Shown: positions 18,155 through 42,027 of the stretch, in pieces | Layout of the letters: every line of letters begins with the position of its first letter | Position numbering within the stretch: the first letter of the stretch is position 1 | DNA from: Escherichia phage phiC120 | Direction: 5' to 3' (one strand) | DNA: 64,000 bases | Sequence record: KY703222 | The notes under the pieces: model-generated | Seen by the model: only the letters and a program-made list of their open reading frames with translations | What the model was told of the DNA's origin: nothing | Database searches by the model: none | Made by a program: the position numbers and the translations under genes

Positions 18155-19150
18155 TCATTCCTTAAGAAGTTTTACTACTTGAATAAGATTAGCTCGTTCT
18201 GTTTTATTTTTACCATTTAAGCCTGCTAATCGTGAGATTTCATCGTCAGTCTGTTGAATAGTTACATTAAGTTCGTTAATCAAAGCTTCAAAGTATTTGA
18301 TTTGCTCAGCATGTTTTGATTCAAATTTCTGAACAGGAATAACGTCTTGGTTCAGTTCATCAATAAGGTCTTTAAGAGCATCTTCTTGGTTGATATCATA
18401 TTCAACTTCTTTTATTTCTTCAACGAGCTCGTCTTTATATCTAACGTCTTTTAGTCCTGGTGCTGGTCCTGAAATCTCTTCTTTAAGAGTACAAACATAT
18501 CCAATACGGTATCCAGTTCCGTCTCGCTTGATATCAACTTCGTCGATAAATCCACAATGTTTAAGCCCGGAGCCGATTATGTCAAAATATCCTTGACGTC
18601 GTCCTTCAAACGTTACACGAACTACTAAGACAGTTTTACCTGCAACCTTTTGAAGCTCACATTTATAAAAGTCAGTTGAACCTGAATAACGTGGATGAGT
18701 TTTAAAGTTCATCTGACGATCTAGGCCCATTTGTAAGCGTGCTGTTACGGCCATAAAACGTGTTTGGTTCTCGTTAAGATGAGCAACAATCCATTTCAAA
18801 GGCATTTTACACTGTTCACGGCCGAACAAATCAGTACGTCCTAGATTACGCAGGATGTTGTTAGAGTTAATCATCGACAGAACGTTAAGTTTATTCAGCG
18901 CGCTGAAGATTCCATCAGCCATTGATTTTCCATAACCTTTACACGCTTTAATAAGTGCTCGCGGCAGATTAGTATAGATTTCAGACGGCATATGAAAATC
19001 AAATTTACTAGTCAGTAATTGATGAACTTGGATAGCAATTTGTTCATAATTAAGTGCCCTGCGATCATTATGGTCTTTAAACCATACTTTAATCTGTGAA
19101 GCACATAAACCGTTAATTTCATGTTTTACCGCATCAGATGTAATGCTCAT
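18155..19150 (-). CDS. Hypothetical protein with C-terminal coiled coil
   Basis: 331-aa ORF. Confidence 0.55.
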   Translation of the reverse strand: MSITSDAVKHEINGLCASQIKVWFKDHNDRRALNYEQIAIQVHQLLTSKFDFHMPSEIYTNLPRALIKACKGYGKSMADGIFSALNKLNVLSMINSNNILRNLGRTDLFGREQCKMPLKWIVAHLNENQTRFMAVTARLQMGLDRQMNFKTHPRYSGSTDFYKCELQKVAGKTVLVVRVTFEGRRQGYFDIIGSGLKHCGFIDEVDIKRDGTGYRIGYVCTLKEEISGPAPGLKDVRYKDELVEEIKEVEYDINQEDALKDLIDELNQDVIPVQKFESKHAEQIKYFEALINELNVTIQQTDDEISRLAGLNGKNKTERANLIQVVKLLKE

Positions 19151-19212
19151 AACTATTTCCTCAGATTGAATTGGAACTCAAAACCATTATAACCCGTCCT
19201 TGGGTAAAGCGT

Positions 19213-19740
19213 TTATGCGTGAACCGTCTTTAAACGTTCTTCAAATTTCCGAAGAGTACTAATACGTTCTGCTTTCTGTTTTGTATAGTTTGCAATACGT
19301 TCTGAAGTGAGAGCGTATCGTTCGTTTACTGATTCTTTCATGAAGTCAGGGATTTCACGAGAAGCTTTAATTTCATCAAACTTATCGAGTACTGCCTGGT
19401 CTTCAGCAATTAAATTTTCGTACATCTCGATATCTTTCTTGATGAAGTCGATATCTTCCTGGGTTACTTTGGATAAACGAGATGCTTTATCCTTTTTGTA
19501 CTGCTCGTTAGTTTCACGAGACCAGAATAATGTACGTTTTTTGTTAGTGTTTTTGTAGACTTCCACAATTCCAACTGAATCGATGATAACAATCCAATTC
19601 CAGCGAGATTTGAAAATCTGACCTCCGTCCACGGTAATCTCGTTACCATAAGCAACGTCATTAAAGAACTTGCTTTGTGCTTCAGATTTAAATTTACCGT
19701 CGTTATAATTTACCAGGTTGAAAATATCTTTAGCGTTCAT
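19213..19740 (-). CDS. Hypothetical protein
   Basis: 175-aa ORF with early-type promoter at 19768..19796. Confidence 0.5.
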   Translation of the reverse strand: MNAKDIFNLVNYNDGKFKSEAQSKFFNDVAYGNEITVDGGQIFKSRWNWIVIIDSVGIVEVYKNTNKKRTLFWSRETNEQYKKDKASRLSKVTQEDIDFIKKDIEMYENLIAEDQAVLDKFDEIKASREIPDFMKESVNERYALTSERIANYTKQKAERISTLRKFEERLKTVHA

Positions 19741-19767
19741 GTTTTACCTCCAGTAGTTGATAGGTCT

Positions 19768-19796
19768 ATAATAACATAACCATAGACCTTGTAAAC
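19768..19796 (-). promoter_or_regulatory. Early-type promoter GTTTAC-N17-TATTAT with palindrome AGGTCTAT / ATAGACCT
   Basis: Upstream of gene 19213..19740. Confidence 0.55.
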
Positions 19797-19798
19797 AA

Positions 19799-20074
19799 CT
19801 AAAAGAAACTTTTTTCGGTATTTTTTCCACTGAACCAAACAGACTTCGGGATTTTTTGTAATTTTTCAGATTTAAGTTTCTCTTCCTGTTCTTTCTTATA
19901 TACACTCTTGTCGTACTGGAGCATCTCTATGGCATTCTTTTGCAAACGATCTAAGGTAATTAAGGCTTTAGTTTTTCCTTTCAAGGAAGAGTCCTGGCGA
20001 ACCTCCTCGCTATATTGTTCTGTTGCACTAATCATACGATGGGCATATAATTCACGACTGGCTTGGATATTCAT
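19799..20074 (-). CDS. Hypothetical protein
   Basis: 91-aa ORF. Confidence 0.4.
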   Translation of the reverse strand: MNIQASRELYAHRMISATEQYSEEVRQDSSLKGKTKALITLDRLQKNAIEMLQYDKSVYKKEQEEKLKSEKLQKIPKSVWFSGKNTEKSFF

Positions 20075-20081
20075 AATTTCC

Positions 20082-21062
20082 TCATTTCAGTAAAGTAACT
20101 TCCGAGATTTCCTCCCAACCATCTTTATCGGTTGAAATAAAATCTGCTACATAAAGAGCCGTACGTAATGATACATTGCGAAGACGAGATACGTTAGCCT
20201 TCATCCAGGACAATGCTTTGTACGTTTCAGCATCAGTCAAGCCACGTTTCTGCATCATGTCAGTAGATAATATTACATCTTCAACTCGAACCATAATCTC
20301 TTCATTAGAGTGTACTCCAAGGTCGAGATACACTGAACGAGATACTAAAGCTTGAAGGTGCGGAGCAAGTTTCGAACCGCGTTCTAACTCTTTATCAATA
20401 TCAACGTTTGTAATGAAAACGATAGTACCTTCAAACTCAAATTCTTTATCAATACCCTTATCATCAAGATAAGATGACGCAGTGCTCCAGCAAACTTTGC
20501 GTTTATCGCCAGTATCTAATGCGGCTTTAAGAAGGTTCAAGATGTCCATATCCGAGAATACGTCAACGTCGTCGATTAAGAGAACGCTGTCTGCATCACG
20601 GTTGAGCCAAAGTTGTTCGTAAAGGCCAATACCTGAGATTTTACCATTAATGCTTTTGTATTTGATGAAACCATTATCATTAGCATTATTAAGCGCTTTA
20701 TCCAGAGAATACGTCTTACCAATACCTGCTGCACCTGAAATAATGAGTGAACGAATTTTGCCATCGATAATGCCATTCGTCATCATGTTCATTACTTTAA
20801 AGCGTTTGTTGATACGAGTTTTCATATCTTCCGCGTTTTCAACAACTGCAACTGGTGATGTCTCAACTCCTTCCATTACGATGTCTGATTTGAAGACCCA
20901 TACTCCACGTTCAGAACCATCAATCATAACGAAAATTTTACCGTCACCTAAGTGGGAACATTCAGGATTAAGCTTTGCCGGGAACCATGTCTTTGTGGCA
21001 ACATAAGAACCAGAGATTTCGTTATTACGATAGATACCTTTTTTGATTTGAACGTTGAACAT
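20082..21062 (-). CDS. AAA+ family ATPase
   Basis: Walker A LIISGAAGIGKTYSL, Walker B SVLLIDDVD; start at internal Met MFNVQ with GGAG SD. Confidence 0.7.
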   Translation of the reverse strand: MFNVQIKKGIYRNNEISGSYVATKTWFPAKLNPECSHLGDGKIFVMIDGSERGVWVFKSDIVMEGVETSPVAVVENAEDMKTRINKRFKVMNMMTNGIIDGKIRSLIISGAAGIGKTYSLDKALNNANDNGFIKYKSINGKISGIGLYEQLWLNRDADSVLLIDDVDVFSDMDILNLLKAALDTGDKRKVCWSTASSYLDDKGIDKEFEFEGTIVFITNVDIDKELERGSKLAPHLQALVSRSVYLDLGVHSNEEIMVRVEDVILSTDMMQKRGLTDAETYKALSWMKANVSRLRNVSLRTALYVADFISTDKDGWEEISEVTLLK

Positions 21063-21101
21063 TTTATTCTCCAAATTTACTCATTTCGTTTCGATAGGTC
21101 T

Positions 21102-21130
21102 ATAATAACATGTTTAAAGCAAAAGTAAAC
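21102..21130 (-). promoter_or_regulatory. Early-type promoter GTTTAC-N17-TATTAT
   Basis: Upstream of the AAA+ ATPase gene; conserved box GATAGGTCTATAATAACA. Confidence 0.55.
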
Positions 21131-21132
21131 AA

Positions 21133-21351
21133 TTATTTGCGATGAGATTTTTTGGTAAGAGGTTGAAAGAACACTGCTTTACCAGCAGGAGTCAAAGTGA
21201 CTCGTAATGCATTACCGATTCCCAAGGATGCTTTAACCAGACCTTTAGATTTCAGTTCACCGAATGCTTGTCGTTGGTCTGCATCACGAGTGTTAACCAT
21301 AAGTCCTTTATCACCAGCTTCACGAATCATTTCTAACATTTTGGTTTTCAT
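21133..21351 (-). CDS. Small basic protein
   Basis: 72-aa ORF between the ATPase and the nucleotidyltransferase-like gene. Confidence 0.45.
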   Translation of the reverse strand: MKTKMLEMIREAGDKGLMVNTRDADQRQAFGELKSKGLVKASLGIGNALRVTLTPAGKAVFFQPLTKKSHRK

Positions 21352-21381
21352 TTTGTTTTCTCCTCTTGTTTTGATAGGTCT

Positions 21382-21410
21382 ATAATAACATATCCTAAAA
21401 GCATGTACAC
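21382..21410 (-). promoter_or_regulatory. Early-type promoter GTGTAC-N17-TATTAT
   Basis: Upstream of gene 21133..21351; same conserved box. Confidence 0.5.
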
Positions 21411-21440
21411 TACTTTTTAAAAATATTTTGACCCCCTAAA

Positions 21441-21454
21441 GGGCCCGAAGGCCC
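21441..21454 (-). terminator. GC hairpin with UUCG loop after the nucleotidyltransferase-like gene (terminator or RNA stabiliser)
   Basis: GGGCC-UUCG-GGCCC on the minus strand; only a short U-tract. Confidence 0.45.
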
Positions 21455-21457
21455 TTA

Positions 21458-22444
21458 TCATTTATAGTATGAATTGTGATTTTCTAAGTAGACTTGCTCA
21501 AGGAAGTCATCCCAGAAACTCATATCTACTTTTTGCTGCATACCGTTCTTAGCAGCTTGTTCTGCCGCATGTTCAACTTGGTCAACGATATCTTCTAAGA
21601 ATTCTTGTACGGTTTTAAACGTATGTTTACCAAGCTTAACATCGAGAATAAATGGAGCATCCTGAAGCGGGTAAACCAGGTCGCCGGTTTTGTAAATTTC
21701 TAAGAGCTGAAGTCCACCACGGCACGCGTGACTCAATGCTTTCCAATCAATACCTTCATTGGCTTCTGCCTTACGAGCACGTTCACCGTAGTTCTCTTCA
21801 AGTTTAACCAGGATGGCATTGAACTCTTTGTTAGTTAACGTATCTTGGAATTTACGGTCTAACAGACTATAGAATGTTTGCTTACCTGTTTTCTCGTTTT
21901 CAGTTTCAACCCATGAAGCAAATTCACTTACAGGCAGAACATTCTTCATATGTGATAAACGAATTACTGCACCATTATCAAAGTATTGTCCCCATTCATT
22001 AGAACGTTTAAGGGCTTGACGAAGAACAGCCAGTCGAGAACCCTTGACGCCATATTTAGAAGCTTGCTTACGGACATACCCTAAATAAGATTTCATGTTA
22101 GTGGTATAGAAACGAGACCTGTTGTCTTGAATATACTTCCATACATCAGGCAAATCAGATTTAACTACTAGACTTTGTGGAGTGTGAAGCATATCTAATG
22201 CGACGGTTTCACCGTCTGCAGCTAGTTTAAAGAAATATTTGAGACTATACAACTCATGATCCACGTCGTCTTTTGTGTTCTTAGAAGCAGTGTTATTCGT
22301 GTTCTTGCTCATGTGTTCTTTAACGTTACCGGTCAAGATATCACGAGCATGAGGGACATAAATTTCTTTAAAATCGACGTCAGATTCAGGAGTAGACGTT
22401 CCATAAAGGTGGCTACCAAAGTAAGCCTTAACAATCGTTTTCAT
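21458..22444 (-). CDS. Predicted Pol-beta-superfamily nucleotidyltransferase
   Basis: N-terminal YFGSHLYGTSTPESDVDFKEIYV fits the hG[GS]-x(9-13)-DhD motif, with a downstream acidic residue (ALDMLH); C-terminal helical domain. Confidence 0.55.
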   Translation of the reverse strand: MKTIVKAYFGSHLYGTSTPESDVDFKEIYVPHARDILTGNVKEHMSKNTNNTASKNTKDDVDHELYSLKYFFKLAADGETVALDMLHTPQSLVVKSDLPDVWKYIQDNRSRFYTTNMKSYLGYVRKQASKYGVKGSRLAVLRQALKRSNEWGQYFDNGAVIRLSHMKNVLPVSEFASWVETENEKTGKQTFYSLLDRKFQDTLTNKEFNAILVKLEENYGERARKAEANEGIDWKALSHACRGGLQLLEIYKTGDLVYPLQDAPFILDVKLGKHTFKTVQEFLEDIVDQVEHAAEQAAKNGMQQKVDMSFWDDFLEQVYLENHNSYYK

Positions 22445-22917
22445 TATTTAGCCTTATATTCAAGAGTAGGACAGACTTTTTCTTTACGAGCTTTAAGGTA
22501 TTCACCTATTAATGATTTCTTACGTTCAATAGGCTCAAGTCCATTTTTAATTCGTTCTTGGTTTTGTGCAATGAGCTCAACTTCTTTATAATACTTCCGC
22601 TCTCTGTATAAGTCGATTAGCCACGGTATGCCTAATACTAAAACTATAGAAATACCAACACATAATGCAATGAATAAAACACCTACGCCAATTGAGGCCG
22701 GAACCAATGTCCATAAACTACTAAAGACAAAGAATTTAGTTAAAATTTCCTGGCCAATGATCGTGGCTGCTGCTAAAATCGCAAATCCAATAATCGAAAC
22801 AAACAATACCGGGAGAAACGTTTTCCAAAAATAAGCACACAACGTTTTCGGACGATTCCATGTACTATTGAACGCGGCATAAATTTTAAAGTGCCAAGAG
22901 TTTTCATTGATAATCAT
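22444..22917 (-). CDS. Membrane protein (about three TM segments)
   Basis: 157 aa with long hydrophobic stretches. Confidence 0.5.
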   Translation of the reverse strand: MIINENSWHFKIYAAFNSTWNRPKTLCAYFWKTFLPVLFVSIIGFAILAAATIIGQEILTKFFVFSSLWTLVPASIGVGVLFIALCVGISIVLVLGIPWLIDLYRERKYYKEVELIAQNQERIKNGLEPIERKKSLIGEYLKARKEKVCPTLEYKAK

Positions 22918-22926
22918 AATAATTCC

Positions 22927-23469
22927 TTATTTCAAAGTCGGGATAATAGAATCAAGATAAGCTTTAAGAGCAACTGCTTCATCTTTGTCTAATGTAACGA
23001 TATGTTGACGAAGGTCATCAATTTGGCGAATAACTACGACATCGCCGTCTTCATAAGAAGGATTAACGCTCAGGACCGTTGTAGAGTCAGGGTTGTCCGG
23101 ATTTGTAATAAAAGCATTACGGCATTTAGCCCATTGAAGTTTGGCTTTTTTGGCTGTTTCAGATTCCATGAATTCTTTCACCTTAGTGACGAATGTTTTC
23201 CAATTATTAATAGAAAAACATTCGTCTTCAGTTTCGATATTAACCCCACTATAAAGTCCGTGATAAAAACGAACTTGAAGGTCTTCATCAATGTTAATTA
23301 CAGATGCATGGCCTGGTGGATTGAGTTTCAAAATCTTGTCCAGTTCCATAGGAAGAATAGTAACCGCATCATCTTCTTGTGTCAGAACGTAAGCATAACC
23401 ACGTTTTTCGATACATAAATCGCCAAACAACTCGGTTGTTTCAATTACAGTTTTCATATTATTCACCAA
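22927..23469 (-). CDS. Hypothetical protein
   Basis: 180-aa ORF. Confidence 0.5.
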   Translation of the reverse strand: MVNNMKTVIETTELFGDLCIEKRGYAYVLTQEDDAVTILPMELDKILKLNPPGHASVINIDEDLQVRFYHGLYSGVNIETEDECFSINNWKTFVTKVKEFMESETAKKAKLQWAKCRNAFITNPDNPDSTTVLSVNPSYEDGDVVVIRQIDDLRQHIVTLDKDEAVALKAYLDSIIPTLK

Positions 23470-23773
23470 TTAAAGTTTCAACAAAATTCACCAAATCATT
23501 CAGACAAGCATCAACCTGTTTTTCATAAAAGTCTTCGTTATCATTTACTGCATGATAAGCTACATCATTCAAATCTGAATCGGCTTCACGTAAGTTACGG
23601 ATAAGTTCCATCAATTTATTAGCTTGTTCACGGGTCATTTTACCATACTCGTTTCAATAAGATTCACTATGCCGTTTACCATGTTATAAGTAAACATCGG
23701 ATAATTGTATTGTACTACAATATAAGCGATAAGCAAAAGTTTCATTTTGTTCTCCGTTCGTTTTGGTAGGACT

Positions 23774-23803
23774 ACTATAACATAGTCCTACCAAGATGTA
23801 AAC
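23774..23803 (-). promoter_or_regulatory. Early-type promoter GTTTAC-N18-TATAGT inside a 10-bp palindrome
   Basis: GGTAGGACTA-ctataaca-TAGTCCTACC. Confidence 0.5.
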
Positions 23804-24036
23804 TACCGATTGTGTTTTAAATGTTGATAAAGTTCTTCAACTTGTTTAGGGTCCAAAACAATTAAGTCATTTTCTTGTCGAAGATAAATCCATCCCTTAT
23901 CCCCAGGACCATTTTTACAAAACATCGCCACCATATCATCATCTTCAGCGCTTTCAGGTAAAAGTTCAAGTACACCGTCTTCAGATTTTCCAGTATAATC
24001 GTAAAGCATAATATCCTCACATAATCTCGTTAACAT
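23803..24036 (-). CDS. Hypothetical protein
   Basis: 77-aa ORF. Confidence 0.45.
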   Translation of the reverse strand: MLTRLCEDIMLYDYTGKSEDGVLELLPESAEDDDMVAMFCKNGPGDKGWIYLRQENDLIVLDPKQVEELYQHLKHNR

Positions 24037-24196
24037 ACATTTGCAATTCAGTGTGCGTATCAGCCATCTTTTTCATTGCCTTATTGATATCGATATCACC
24101 GTCTTCACACCCATGGGCATTTTCCCAATCGGATACAGCGTTAGCGTACTCTTCAATCAAAAACATTAACTTAGAAATTTTTTCTTTACGTGACAT
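24017..24196 (-). CDS. Hypothetical protein (start at internal Met)
   Basis: ORF 24017..24235; MSRKEKISKL start with GAGGAG SD. Confidence 0.45.
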   Translation of the reverse strand: MSRKEKISKLMFLIEEYANAVSDWENAHGCEDGDIDINKAMKKMADTHTELQMYVNEIM

Positions 24197-24223
24197 AACG
24201 TTCTCCTCTAGTAAGTAAGGTCT

Positions 24224-24252
24224 ACTATAACACAACCTGAGGAGAAGTAAAC
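24224..24252 (-). promoter_or_regulatory. Early-type promoter (GTTTAC-N17-TATAGT) with anti-SD arm
   Basis: 8-bp inverted repeat TTCTCCTC (24201..24208) / GAGGAGAA (24239..24246) links the spacer to the SD of the 24196 gene. Confidence 0.55.
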
Positions 24253-24262
24253 TGATAGATGC

Positions 24263-24291
24263 AAAAAAGCCCCAACCTTTCGGAAGGGGCT
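24263..24291 (-). terminator. Intrinsic terminator after rI
   Basis: Minus strand AGCCCCUUCCGAAAGGUUGGGGCU followed by UUUUUU. Confidence 0.7.
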
Positions 24292-24297
24292 AGTAAA

Positions 24298-24599
24298 TTA
24301 GATAGATGTAGGCTCTAATTTTATTTTCATGAACTCAGCAAATTTTCTGGCAGTTTTTATGCCTTGTTCATGACATTCAAATGCATCATCACAGGGGCTA
24401 TTTTTGTAATGCTTTGCCATATACTTATAAAATTTTTCAGAATTCTCAACATTTTGAATTTCGAACAAAGTATATACGTTTTTAATCCCTGATTCCATAA
24501 AGTTATCAAAGTACGGGTCAACATATGCAGTGCCAACAATAGGAGTTGTTGCTGCAAAAACCCCAGCATCGCCATGACAGCTATCGCTCTTAAGGCCAT
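24298..24599 (-). pseudogene. rI: Lysis-inhibition regulator rI, interrupted by a frameshift
   Basis: ATG 24599 with AGGAGG SD encodes MALRAIAVMAMLG (signal anchor as in T4 rI), then the frame is lost at GGGGTTTTT (24552..24564); the rI-like remainder ...DPYFDNFMESGIKNVYTLFE... is in another frame (ORF 24298..24498). Confidence 0.6.
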
Positions 24600-24611
24600 A
24601 TAGGCCTCCTG

Positions 24612-24824
24612 TTAATTTTGGCCAGTATTTATTTTTCGCCTTTGAACGGCCTTAACATCTGCGAGGTATTTTTCCAGCTTGCGCTTGCGTGTATAATCAG
24701 CTTTAGAACCAGTTTGACGAATATCCTCGTTTAAATGAGAAATAGAATGTCCTAATTCTCTTCGGATTTCGTCCAATTGGGTTACAGTAAGATTACGAAG
24801 TTGTCTTTCGTTTAATTGCTGCAT
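24612..24824 (-). CDS. Hypothetical protein (rI.1 position)
   Basis: 70-aa ORF between rI and tk. Confidence 0.45.
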
Positions 24825-24851
24825 ATATACCTCTTGGTTAGATATTAGTAT

Positions 24852-25433
24852 TTATAACAACCCTGTCAAATCATTCCAATGCTTCCGGCATAATGACACG
24901 TATCTATCGGTATCACCAATTTCAATTTGACTGCCATCTGTAATTGGAAGTCCGTCTTCCGTGACTCTAGCTACCATTGTGGCCTTTTTACCGCAATGAC
25001 AGACACCTTTAAGTTCAACAAGCTTATCGGCAATAGCCATTAATGCTTGAGAACCTTCAAATAGATTACCTTTAAAATCTGTTCGTAGTCCGTATGCCAT
25101 TACCGGCACATTGTATACGTCAACAATACGACTAAGTTGATACACCTTTTCAGTAGTTAAGAACTGAGCTTCGTCAACAAATACACAGTGAATATCCTTT
25201 TGTGCTGCAGCCCATTTATAAAATTCAAAGATATCCATGTCTTTTGTAATTATATTGGCATCCTGACGAATACCAATACGAGAGACTATTTCACCTTTTG
25301 AATCGCGAGTATCAATAGCCGGTTTAAGAACTAATACACCCATGCCACGTTCTTTATAGTTATGTGCGGCAGTAAGTAATGAAGCAGACTTACCAGCGTT
25401 CATAGCGGCATAGGTAAAAATTAAACTAGCCAT
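24852..25433 (-). CDS. tk: Thymidine kinase
   Basis: 193 aa; P-loop YAAMNAGKSASLL; zinc ribbon CHCGKKA...CRKH. Confidence 0.93.
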   Translation of the reverse strand: MASLIFTYAAMNAGKSASLLTAAHNYKERGMGVLVLKPAIDTRDSKGEIVSRIGIRQDANIITKDMDIFEFYKWAAAQKDIHCVFVDEAQFLTTEKVYQLSRIVDVYNVPVMAYGLRTDFKGNLFEGSQALMAIADKLVELKGVCHCGKKATMVARVTEDGLPITDGSQIEIGDTDRYVSLCRKHWNDLTGLL

Positions 25434-25442
25434 AAGAGTCCC

Positions 25443-25625
25443 TTATAGTGAATTCACGTAGTCAATGAGTTCTTGTTCTTTCCTGTCAAATGATTCCATC
25501 AATGCTTGATATTCTTCGTCTGTTAAAGGAGCATATTCATCGTACGCATTGGTGGCTGCTTGCTCATCCAATAGGTCATGGATAAGTTCGAACAGTTTAG
25601 TTTTCTCTTCTTTAGTCAATTTCAT
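25443..25625 (-). CDS. Hypothetical acidic protein (tk.1 position)
   Basis: 60-aa ORF. Confidence 0.4.
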   Translation of the reverse strand: MKLTKEEKTKLFELIHDLLDEQAATNAYDEYAPLTDEEYQALMESFDRKEQELIDYVNSL

Positions 25626-25849
25626 TTAGGTTCACCTTCTTTAACGAAATCTGGGTAAGGGTAAAATCCTGAGTAAAACCCTTCACCTTTATGATTGCTA
25701 CAACCTTTGTTCGAACAGTAACACCAATAATCAAAATCACAAGCCATTTCGTCATTGCATAAAGCAAAAACTACAGGCCATTCGCATTTTTCGCATTTAG
25801 CACCTGTAAGAATTTTTGTTTGGCTCATAACCATTTGACCTGCATGCAA
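25622..25849 (-). CDS. Cysteine-rich small protein
   Basis: 75 aa with several Cys pairs (CEKCEW...CYCSNKGC). Confidence 0.45.
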   Translation of the reverse strand: MHAGQMVMSQTKILTGAKCEKCEWPVVFALCNDEMACDFDYWCYCSNKGCSNHKGEGFYSGFYPYPDFVKEGEPK

Positions 25850-26052
25850 TATTCTTCGACATGCTTTTTACGACCTTTCTTATCAATAAAGGTATATTCC
25901 ATAAAGCGTCCATGATAACGACGTTCAACATCGTGAGGGGTGTTAATAGGACACTTAGTCTGACGAATTTCTTCCCATTCACGAATAATAACTGCTTTAT
26001 TCTTTGGGTCATACGGGTGAGGATAATGCACATTCATAACAATGGTTCCCAA
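25825..26052 (-). CDS. Hypothetical protein
   Basis: 75-aa ORF. Confidence 0.4.
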   Translation of the reverse strand: MGTIVMNVHYPHPYDPKNKAVIIREWEEIRQTKCPINTPHDVERRYHGRFMEYTFIDKKGRKKHVEEYCMQVKWL

Positions 26053-26501
26053 TCAACAATCACAATTTCTAGTTTAGTGGAATATGTATCAAGAATTTCT
26101 TCAATGATATCCCAGTTTCCACCACCTATACCTGCTCCAATTCTTGGCATGTAAATCACAGGCTTTGTTATCTTATTTTTTCCGAATTCATTTAATTCTA
26201 TTATACAATTCATTAAAGCAGAGTACTCAAAATTAGGTCCCGGCTCAAACTGAGTATAAAGATTAAAGCAATAAGCTTTATGAGTCTTAAAATATTTTTC
26301 ATAAACCGAATAAGTCCCAAGTTTAGACTCGTCTCCGAATTCAGTTTGAAGTTTATCGGCTTCCAGAATTTTTGGATAAGCCTTTGCCAATTGACCTGCT
26401 ACACCGGCGCCCATTGTATGAAAACAATTGCACCCATGAGCAATATTATTACCTTTAGAAAACAGGGCGACAATATCGCCCTTGATATAGTTTTTAATCA
26501 C
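26034..26501 (-). CDS. Macro-domain protein, TARG1/DarG-like
   Basis: 155 aa; GDIVALFSKGNNIAHGCNCFHTMGAGVAGQL and PRIGAGIGGGNWDIIEEIL resemble the two glycine-rich ADP-ribose-binding loops of TARG1-type macro domains. Confidence 0.55.
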   Translation of the reverse strand: MIKNYIKGDIVALFSKGNNIAHGCNCFHTMGAGVAGQLAKAYPKILEADKLQTEFGDESKLGTYSVYEKYFKTHKAYCFNLYTQFEPGPNFEYSALMNCIIELNEFGKNKITKPVIYMPRIGAGIGGGNWDIIEEILDTYSTKLEIVIVDWEPLL

Positions 26502-26841
26502 TTGCTACAAGTCCTCTAGTATAAGAGTCAACTAGACGGTCCACCATAGAATTGCATGCTGCCTTATCTTTAGGTTCCGCCACCGAGCATTCTAATATTT
26601 GCCATTTTTTATGATATCGTTTAATTAAGGTAGACGCCTTGAACCTACTAGACGCCCCATCTTTTTCTCCGTCTTTATACGCATATAACAATTTTTGTGA
26701 AAAATCTACTTTACACTCTTGACTTTTACCACAGTAATCAGACGCCGTTCTGTTTGTATACTCCGTTACATCAGTATATGTAGTATTAGCAAGAGCGTTA
26801 AATGAAACCAAGCTAACTATTAAAGCCAACATTTTGGTCAT
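26494..26841 (-). CDS. Secreted protein (position of T4 vs, 115 aa)
   Basis: N-terminal signal peptide MTKMLALIVSLVSFNALA; 115 aa. Confidence 0.45.
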   Translation of the reverse strand: MTKMLALIVSLVSFNALANTTYTDVTEYTNRTASDYCGKSQECKVDFSQKLLYAYKDGEKDGASSRFKASTLIKRYHKKWQILECSVAEPKDKAACNSMVDRLVDSYTRGLVASD

Positions 26842-27380
26842 TCTTTTATTTCCAGTAGTTTATTTGATTTAAGGTAATTAGCCTTTTCTAGGACTTCAGA
26901 AGCATATTTACTTCCAGCACTTGTCTTCCATCCCGCATTATATGAGGATATAGCTTTTCTTATATCCCCGTTATGTATATTTAACCAATAAGAAAATTCG
27001 ATATAAGCCCATCTGGCTGAATTAGACCGCTTAGATAGCATTTTCTTAATTTGGGCATCAGTCATATTATAACCAAGCTGGTTAATTCTTGCCCTCATTG
27101 TTGGTAGATAGTTTTGGAACATTCCATACGCATGGTGACCTTTCTTATCTTTAAGATTAATACCGGCAGATGATTCTTGCCATAGTATTGCGGCCATTAT
27201 GTATCCAAGTCCTTTCTTATGCATATTTTCATGCGTTTTAAATTTTCCGTCCTTAGAAAATTGTTCCCCAAACTGATAAGCATAATTCAAGTTATCGAGT
27301 TGGACATTACTAAAAGTATGCTCGGAGCTATGTGCTGATAATGAAAGAGCAAATAGACCAGCGAGTAGTGCTTTTCTCAT
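26838..27380 (-). CDS. Secreted lytic-transglycosylase-like protein (vs.1 position)
   Basis: Signal peptide MRKALLAGLFALSLSA; LWQESSAG resembles the SLT catalytic E-S motif. Confidence 0.55.
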   Translation of the reverse strand: MRKALLAGLFALSLSAHSSEHTFSNVQLDNLNYAYQFGEQFSKDGKFKTHENMHKKGLGYIMAAILWQESSAGINLKDKKGHHAYGMFQNYLPTMRARINQLGYNMTDAQIKKMLSKRSNSARWAYIEFSYWLNIHNGDIRKAISSYNAGWKTSAGSKYASEVLEKANYLKSNKLLEIKE

Positions 27381-27388
27381 GTTTACCT

Positions 27389-27847
27389 CTAGATTTTAAT
27401 CACTGCTTTAGAAGCTTTTCCTGGTAGTCGTTTATTGTTAATAATAGCCATTCTACATTGAAGAGTCTTCATTTTGAATGCCGGATTTTCGCGACAAACT
27501 GTAAGGCCTAACCAAAGATTTCCATCAGTTATTTCTAAACGGCCTGGGCGGTATTCGACACCTTCGACAAAATCTTCATCAACATCTGGACGTGCCGGCA
27601 TTGATAAAAATTCTGCAACTTCTTTAACGTGATTTTTTACTTTACGAAATAATTCAAAAACGTAATTCTCATCTATTTCTCTCTGGATGGCACGATCTAA
27701 GAGATGTTGAGAATACTTGATATGAAAGCCTGGTAGTCCAAGAGACTTTGCAGCATCTTTTATACCGGCATTGATTTGACGAAACTCCGTTTCAAAGATT
27801 CGACGGAGTTTATTGCGACGGATAAAAACTTCCGAATTGATAGTCAT
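27389..27847 (-). CDS. regB: Endoribonuclease RegB
   Basis: 152 aa; MTINSEVFIRRNKLRR...YSQHLLDRAIQREIDENYVFELF...LQCRMAIINNKRLPGKASKAVIKI matches T4 RegB. Confidence 0.85.
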   Translation of the reverse strand: MTINSEVFIRRNKLRRIFETEFRQINAGIKDAAKSLGLPGFHIKYSQHLLDRAIQREIDENYVFELFRKVKNHVKEVAEFLSMPARPDVDEDFVEGVEYRPGRLEITDGNLWLGLTVCRENPAFKMKTLQCRMAIINNKRLPGKASKAVIKI

Positions 27848-41870: not shown

Positions 41871-41947
<77 letters not shown>

Positions 41948-41953
41948 AATATA

Positions 41954-42027
41954 TGACCCAGACCAGATTCGAACTGGTAACCTTTCCCTTATGAGGGGAC
42001 TGCTGCTAACCGTTGAGCTACAGGGCC
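41954..42027 (-). tRNA. tRNA-like gene with CAU anticodon (Met or Ile2), non-canonical stems
   Basis: Minus strand GGCCCTG...ACCAG-TTCGAAT-CTGGT-CTGGGTC-A; anticodon loop CUCAUAA; one U-U mismatch in the acceptor stem and an irregular D-arm. Confidence 0.6.

Follow-up and report, generated by a model that had tools for sequence, protein, structure and literature searches.

A putative anti-DarT macrodomain protein of the T4 Tk.4 (AdfM) family with a glutamine at the position of the DarG/TARG1 catalytic lysine

The 64,000-nucleotide stretch of Escherichia phage phiC120 analysed here (record KY703222, hereafter the window) contains a macrodomain gene of the T4 tk.4/adfM family. We consider its product likely to be an orphan antitoxin that hydrolyses the ADP-ribose-thymidine bond made by DarT2, using a glutamine-dependent chemistry that dispenses with the lysine of DarG and TARG1. 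Because DarTG systems ADP-ribosylate the DNA of phages and so stop its replication, host range is easier to predict, and therapeutic phages are easier to choose, once it is known which phages have working erasers. For T4 it has been published that T-even phages oppose DarTG1 with the NADAR enzyme AdfN and DarTG2 with the macrodomain AdfM. What is added here is that the T-even AdfM family never carries the DarG/TARG1 lysine and matches the glutamine-type site of SCO6735.

The tk.4 gene, its neighbours and its relatives

The gene and its immediate surroundings contain the following features:

26034..26501, minus strand: tk.4/adfM coding sequence, a single-domain macrodomain of 155 aa, with GTG start and TGA stop (from the ORF list and translation)
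26512..26516, minus strand: Shine-Dalgarno sequence GAGGA, 10 nt upstream of the GTG and within the 3' end of vs
26494..26841, minus strand: vs (valyl-tRNA synthetase modifier), the upstream neighbour, whose final 8 nt overlap the start of tk.4
25825..26037, minus strand: tk.3-like ORF of 70 aa, the downstream neighbour, whose ATG overlaps the stop of tk.4 (ATGA)

The original prediction had placed a 155-aa frame at 26034..26501 and quoted two glycine-rich peptides from it. The frame is found there, on the minus strand, and both peptide strings are present verbatim; the plus strand across the same interval contains many stops. The GTG start is credible because it aligns with the ATG of T4 tk.4 and because an identical GAGGA is found in T4 at equal spacing. 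Given the overlaps with the end of vs and with the next ATG, tk.4 forms part of a closely packed run of genes on one strand. Only one copy was detected when the protein was compared by tblastn with the window (the remaining matches had E>0.08); in the record of Escherichia phage Av-05 two places match the protein. A promoter scan gave 10 sites vs 13.1 in shuffled sequence, that is, fewer than in the shuffles, and for this reason no promoter is claimed. At 26464-26482 (minus strand), inside codons 7-16 of tk.4, there is a hairpin with a GC-rich stem of 8 bp and, after it, a U-rich run: AGGGCGAT-ATT-GTCGCCCT GUUUUCU. Its stem is also found in T4. As a terminator it was rejected, since the z-score of the fold was only -1.7 and such sites numbered 4 vs 2.3 +/- 1.5 in shuffles; it may be a by-product of coding for the conserved KGDIVAL motif. 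The neighbouring vs was the T4 gene most strongly depleted in minimal vs rich medium in the HIDEN-SEQ preprint (bioRxiv 10.1101/2025.11.20.689424).

The protein was 99% identical (151/153) to RB69 Tk.4 (NP_861803, 154 aa) and 85% identical (132/155, gapless) to T4 Tk.4 (NP_049723, 155 aa). The gene order tk, small tk.x ORFs, tk.4, vs, vs.1, regB is common to the window, T4 and RB69. Judged by identity and gene order, the gene is the RB69-type ortholog of T4 tk.4 (adfM). The original prediction named no characterised macro domain at this position in T4; T4 does have a macrodomain gene there, tk.4. All the active-site positions are identical among the T4, RB69 and window proteins, but the T4 protein differs from that of the window by 23 substitutions, and its gene starts with ATG instead of GTG. 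Codon 127 (26121-26123, minus strand) is one of the differences. At this point of the phosphate-binding loop T4 has K127 (IGAGIGKGNW), whereas the window has the family consensus G127, as do RB69 and in total 108 of 118 aligned sequences (117 full-length homologs plus the query); lysine is found in 5/118. The T4 allele, which is the one that has been tested experimentally, is the unusual one at this residue, located beside the equivalent of TARG1 D125.

Many database entries still call the gene 'phosphatase' or 'hypothetical protein'. The former is the RefSeq label in T4 and RB69 (with the note 'Tk.4; contains A1pp phosphatase motif'), and homologs in other phage records are named 'macro domain protein', 'ADP-ribose binding module' or 'hypothetical protein'. 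By tblastn, Tk.4-type matches were found in 2,797 of 50,697 phage records, spanning Escherichia, Klebsiella, Salmonella, Pseudomonas, Vibrio, Acinetobacter, Aeromonas and other host groups. A published survey reported Macro domains in 41% of myoviruses (PMC9503650).

The phage itself is an RB69-like T-even phage (RB69 is classified as Mosigvirus, Tevenvirinae). The 2 kb around tk.4 (25400-27400) are 100% identical to the Av-05 record, and the window matches the Av-05 RefSeq entry (NC_025830) at 99.985%, with a 1-nt indel, only from 23783 on (to 30400). Along 19000-25000 the best full-length matches were phiE142, CCU7 and RB69, at 96.5-97%. To the left of 23783, where the window continues to follow RB69, phiE142 and CCU7 colinearly, a gene annotated 'major capsid protein' is found in the Av-05 record. 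With ~121 kb each, the records of Av-05 and phiE142 fall short of the ~168 kb of their relatives, and Av-05 is filed under Vequintavirinae/Avunavirus though its sequence is RB69-like. This record looks rearranged or incomplete, and also misclassified. Between tk and tk.4 (25443-26037) the window has three small ORFs, as does T4 (tk.1, tk.2, tk.3), and RB69 has one (tk.2), adjoining tk.4. Because of this difference in ORF content, and despite the 99% identity of Tk.4, the window phage seems to be a local mosaic with respect to RB69.

Fold, class and predicted active site

That the product is a macro domain, as the original prediction proposed, was confirmed by several comparisons. The Pfam Macro model (PF01661) matched with 28.6 bits against a gathering threshold of 22, residues 22-136 covering model positions 2-117 of 118, and PHROG 335 matched with E=4.7e-67. 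In the AlphaFold2 model (built from a 64-sequence alignment; pLDDT 95.1, pTM 0.90) the three alpha/beta/alpha layers of the macro fold are present, as are its mixed central sheet and the pair of Gly-rich loops for the ligand. A profile of the Tk.4 family searched against PDB sequences retrieved BT1257 (2.7e-18), TARG1 (2.8e-16), SCO6735 (6.3e-15), Mtb DarG (6.7e-14) and Poa1p (1.3e-13), with SARS-CoV-2 Mac1 at only 1.8e-4, and the top Foldseek matches of the model were the same proteins. Both structure and profile are nearer to the members of the ALC1-like/TARG1-like class than to the MacroD, viral or PARG types. A published phylogeny groups SCO6735, Bt_1257, TARG1 and DarG in this 'ALC1-like' class (PMC9411070). 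Tk.4 belongs then to Pfam Macro, to the ALC1-like class and, within it, to the T4 Tk.4/AdfM orthologous group.

The more precise placement in the TARG1/DarG subfamily that had been predicted holds at the level of the ALC1-like class, but below this level it does not, as the Lys84/Asp125 dyad of TARG1 and K80 of DarG are both absent. Tk.4 is neither a DarG nor a strict TARG1-type enzyme. Against the NCBIfam DarG equivalog NF048014 it scored 30.8 bits vs a cut-off of 250, and along model positions 4-146 of 338 only; the PADLOC DarG model gave 32.6 bits along positions 4-145 of 329. DarG has a C-terminal DarT-binding domain and an adjacent darT, and Tk.4 has neither, its neighbours being vs and the tk.3-like ORF. 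The elements of the predicted active site are these:

26475..26480, minus strand: G8-D9 of the IKGD motif, aligned with N8-L9 of TaqDarG (ADP-ribose contacts) and with the 'KGD' of TARG1
26397..26438, minus strand: loop 1 (substrate-binding), H22-G23-C24-N25-C26...G31-A32-G33-V34-A35, from the alignments
26250..26255, minus strand: T83-Q84, at the end of the strand 75-82, with Q84 (codon CAG) at the position of the catalytic Lys
26112..26147, minus strand: loop 2 (phosphate-binding), P119-R-I-G122-A-G124-I-G126-G127-G128-N-W130, from the alignments

In TaqDarG the ADP-ribose is contacted by N8, L9, T20, N22, V31, Q34, T79, G117, G119, N120 and G121, and K80 (equivalent to TARG1 K84) is the catalytic residue, K80A being inactive and N22A the next most damaging change (PMC5179494). 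In the alignments N22, V31, Q34 and T79 of TaqDarG correspond to N25, V34, Q37 and T83 of Tk.4, and the glycines 117, 119 and 121 to G122, G124 and G126. The pair T83-Q84 fell on T79-K80 of DarG and T83-K84 of TARG1 in three independent alignments, namely an HMM alignment to TARG1, a MAFFT alignment with DarG, TARG1 and PhiKZ gp104, and an hhalign comparison with TaqDarG (98.1% probability). Compared with the DarG structures (T. aquaticus 5M31/5M3E, M. tuberculosis 5M3I), Tk.4 has Q84 in place of K80 and P87 in place of W83. The catalytic dyad K84/D125 of human TARG1/OARD1 (PDB 4J5S) becomes Q84/G126, D125 pairing with G126 in the HMM alignment. Among the 118 aligned sequences Q84, C26, D49, N80, Y82, G33 and A35 were invariant (118/118), position 9 was always D or N (118/118), and N25 (117/118), H22 (116/118) and G8 (113/118) varied very little; H22, N25, T83, Q84 and both glycine loops can be described as invariant or near-invariant. 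As for the ADP-ribose-binding residues on which the original prediction had been made to depend, most of the DarG contacts are kept in the alignments but the catalytic Lys is replaced by Q84. The binding pocket of Tk.4 is thus intact, but the TARG1/DarG lysine is absent throughout the family.

A glutamine at this position is known from SCO6735 of Streptomyces coelicolor (PDB 5E3B), which is 54% identical to Bt_1257 and has Gln85 where DarG has K80 and TARG1 has K84 (PMC9411070). DarT-modified thymidine is freed of its ADP-ribose more rapidly by this enzyme than by DarG or TARG1; the enzyme also rescues E. coli from DarT, and neither Q85A nor Q85E retains any activity (PMC9411070). Its authors proposed a water-mediated mechanism in which Gln85 holds the substrate in position and the Val25 backbone does the same for the water (PMC9411070). 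When the Tk.4 family was compared with SCO6735 by hhalign (98.4%, E=7e-15), N80 paired with N81 and Q84 with Gln85, and in loop 1 H22, G23, C24 and N25 paired with H24, Val25 (the residue with the backbone role), C26 and N27. The subclass of SCO6735 and Bt_1257 is defined by a mobile loop five residues longer than in TARG1/DarG that contains K89 (PMC9411070). Just after Q84 the alignment has a 5-residue gap in Tk.4, exactly at this extension, and SCO6735 K34 corresponds to A32, so that Tk.4 has neither the mobile-loop extension with K89 nor K34. The glutamine is common to Tk.4 and to SCO6735/Bt_1257 (PDB 2FG1/2AFC), and from it we infer the catalytic role of Q84; on the other hand, these cellular proteins are only 24-30% identical to Tk.4, which is phage-encoded. 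Taken at the level of sequence, the T-even AdfM family combines a Gln-type site, as in SCO6735, with a short loop, as in TARG1/DarG. This combination was not found in the HIDEN-SEQ preprint, in which the word 'lysine' is absent.

The name AdfM (chimallivirus anti-DarT factor macro) has also been given, independently, to gp104 of phage PhiKZ (Cell Reports 2026, PMC13309987), which removes ADP-ribose from DarT2-modified DNA in vitro and rescues cells from DarT2 (PMC13309987). Like Tk.4 it is a phage-encoded orphan macrodomain acting against DarT2. However, gp104 (L003 22518-23006) is a close relative of DarG (E=9.4e-25 to Mtb DarG) that keeps the lysine, in an FPTK motif, whereas Tk.4 is devoid of it. 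The sole BLAST match between the two proteins was a stretch of 23 residues with E=6e-4. Furthermore, gp104 is imported into the phage nucleus, a structure that T-even phages lack. The two proteins called AdfM are members of different subfamilies and probably differ in their chemistry, a split that matters for catalytic-dead controls, for inhibitors and for database annotation. With AdfN of T4 (gene 30.3) Tk.4 has in common the presumed strategy, a T-even antitoxin-like hydrolase that reverses DNA ADP-ribosylation, but not the fold. AdfN, a NADAR enzyme whose fold is unrelated to that of Tk.4, acts specifically on guanosine-linked ADP-ribose and against DarTG1, and leaves DarTG2 unaffected.

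Function, proposed mechanism and other readings

For T4 the genetics have been reported. Earlier work had found that T2 and T4 without adfN, and T4 without adfA and adfN, were still resistant to DarTG2, so that a further anti-DarTG2 factor was to be expected. In the HIDEN-SEQ preprint of 20 Nov 2025 a T4 transposon library was grown on a DarTG2-expressing host, and tk.4 was the sole T4 gene needed there; a clean knockout made T4 sensitive (bioRxiv 10.1101/2025.11.20.689424). The preprint gives the gene the new name adfM (anti-DarT factor Macrodomain) and states that enzymatic removal of ADP-ribose from DNA by AdfM 'seems likely' (bioRxiv 10.1101/2025.11.20.689424). The genetic evidence on T4 tk.4 is so far that of a preprint, and neither its text nor our literature search contained an enzyme assay of a Tk.4-type protein. 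The counter-defence against DarT toxins suggested for the gene of the window agrees with these genetics, and the check that had been put forward, a comparison of plating on DarTG hosts in the presence and absence of the gene, was carried out there on T4 and came out as predicted. The idea is then right, but had already been published for T4.

In the mechanism that we propose, the host DarT2 attaches ADP-ribose to thymidines in single-stranded phage DNA, blocking its replication, and Tk.4, made during infection as a stand-alone macrodomain, would act as an 'orphan antitoxin' against DarTG2. Most likely the two glycine-rich loops of Tk.4 would bind the ADP-ribose between them and the bond from ribose to thymine would be cut, so that ADP-ribose is set free and the DNA returns to normal. 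The chemistry would probably do without the DarG/TARG1 lysine, a water-mediated route as in SCO6735, with an essential glutamine (Q84) positioning the substrate, being more likely. By extension from T4, the RB69-type allele of the window would be expected to do the same job, by hydrolysis rather than by binding. Several facts speak against this explanation: the catalytic Lys is absent and the corresponding K80A mutant of TaqDarG is inactive, the two features linked to the DNA activity of SCO6735 (the mobile loop with K89, and K34, which is A32 here) are missing, and the T4 allele that was tested differs at 23 positions, including K127 vs G127.

Protection might come about without catalysis, if Tk.4 bound and inhibited DarT2 or bound the ADP-ribosylated DNA. 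In vitro, dead SCO6735 (Q85A) is still an inhibitor of DarT, and a stronger one than DarG K80A or TARG1 K84A (PMC9411070), and the lysine that is catalytic in DarG and TARG1 is missing from Tk.4. We think this unlikely, though, as there is no counterpart of the C-terminal DarT-binding domain of DarG (the match ends at model position 146 of 338), while the invariance or near-invariance of the active-site positions in 118 homologs fits a Gln-dependent catalysis such as that of SCO6735; from this conservation pattern an enzyme is expected. An inactive macrodomain that only binds, because the Lys is missing, was also considered and appears less likely, since SCO6735, with an essential Gln at the same position, is highly active on thymidine-ADP-ribose. 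A housekeeping role on metabolites, as ADP-ribose-1''-phosphate phosphatase or O-acetyl-ADP-ribose deacetylase, is what the database names suggest, but these names are domain-level transfers and not experiments, and the sole phenotype reported for an ortholog is DarTG2 sensitivity. The residues of Poa1p studied in mutant structures, H23, S30 and F152, align with H22, T29 and G126 of Tk.4; Poa1p has a Ser where the Tk.4 family has the invariant Q84, and F152 falls on a glycine. The RNA repair by T4 Pnk/Rnl1 is not known to produce Appr1p, hence there would be no obvious need for an Appr1p phosphatase activity. Such a housekeeping function seems to us quite unlikely as the main one, and a side activity in vitro on small ADP-ribose derivatives is possible and compatible with the orphan-antitoxin explanation.

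The targets of Tk.4 could also be others than DarTG2 products. There are three ADP-ribosyltransferases in T-even phages, and many large phages have both macrodomains and transferases (PMC9503650), which would suit an eraser or tuner of the marks left by Alt, ModA and ModB on host proteins or RNA. Such a regulator of the phage's own transferases had been part of the original prediction, but we found nothing in its favour: tk.4 lies among tk, vs and regB, we saw nothing that connects it with alt or mod genes, and the phenotype in the T4 library was on the DarTG2 host only. Alt, ModA and ModB modify mainly arginine, and we know of no TARG1-class macrodomain that cleaves the arginine-ADP-ribose linkage, so we regard this reading as very unlikely. 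A broader eraser of nucleic-acid ADP-ribose, acting for example on uracil-linked RNA or on the products of other defence transferases and with DarTG2 as one target among several, has more circumstantial facts on its side. Uracil-linked ADP-ribose in RNA and thymine-linked ADP-ribose in DNA are both substrates of TARG1, of DarG and of SCO6735 with its Gln-type site, SCO6735 acts also on Glu/Asp-linked protein ADP-ribose (PMC9411070), and the 2,797 phage records with many host genera are a wider distribution than expected for a counter-defence against a single system. Nevertheless, DarTG2 is the only phenotype so far, and as a replacement for the orphan-antitoxin explanation we give it a decidedly low probability; the two are compatible. 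Tentatively, Tk.4 may be the smallest known lysine-independent DNA de-ADP-ribosylase, perhaps with wider substrates (uracil-linked RNA, Glu/Asp-linked protein), a proposal that we hold as possible with rather less than even confidence. If the range were wider, the protein would counter several ADP-ribosylating defences and not DarTG2 alone, which would explain in part its presence in so many of the 50,697 phage records.

Other features of the window

The lysis-inhibition gene rI (24298-24599, minus strand) is frameshifted in the window by an indel at ~24556-24560, within a homopolymer that has A5 (plus strand) here vs A6 in the Av-05 record. As a consequence rI is split into an 80-aa and a 66-aa ORF, while RB69 has an intact frame of 100 aa. 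The indel may be real, which would make this a rapid-lysis (r) mutant, or it may be a sequencing error in the homopolymer. Two adjacent tRNA genes, tRNA-Arg(TCT) at 41871-41947 and tRNA-Met(CAT) at 41954-42027, both on the minus strand, were identified by ARAGORN and confirmed by Rfam, for which they were the only matches along the window.
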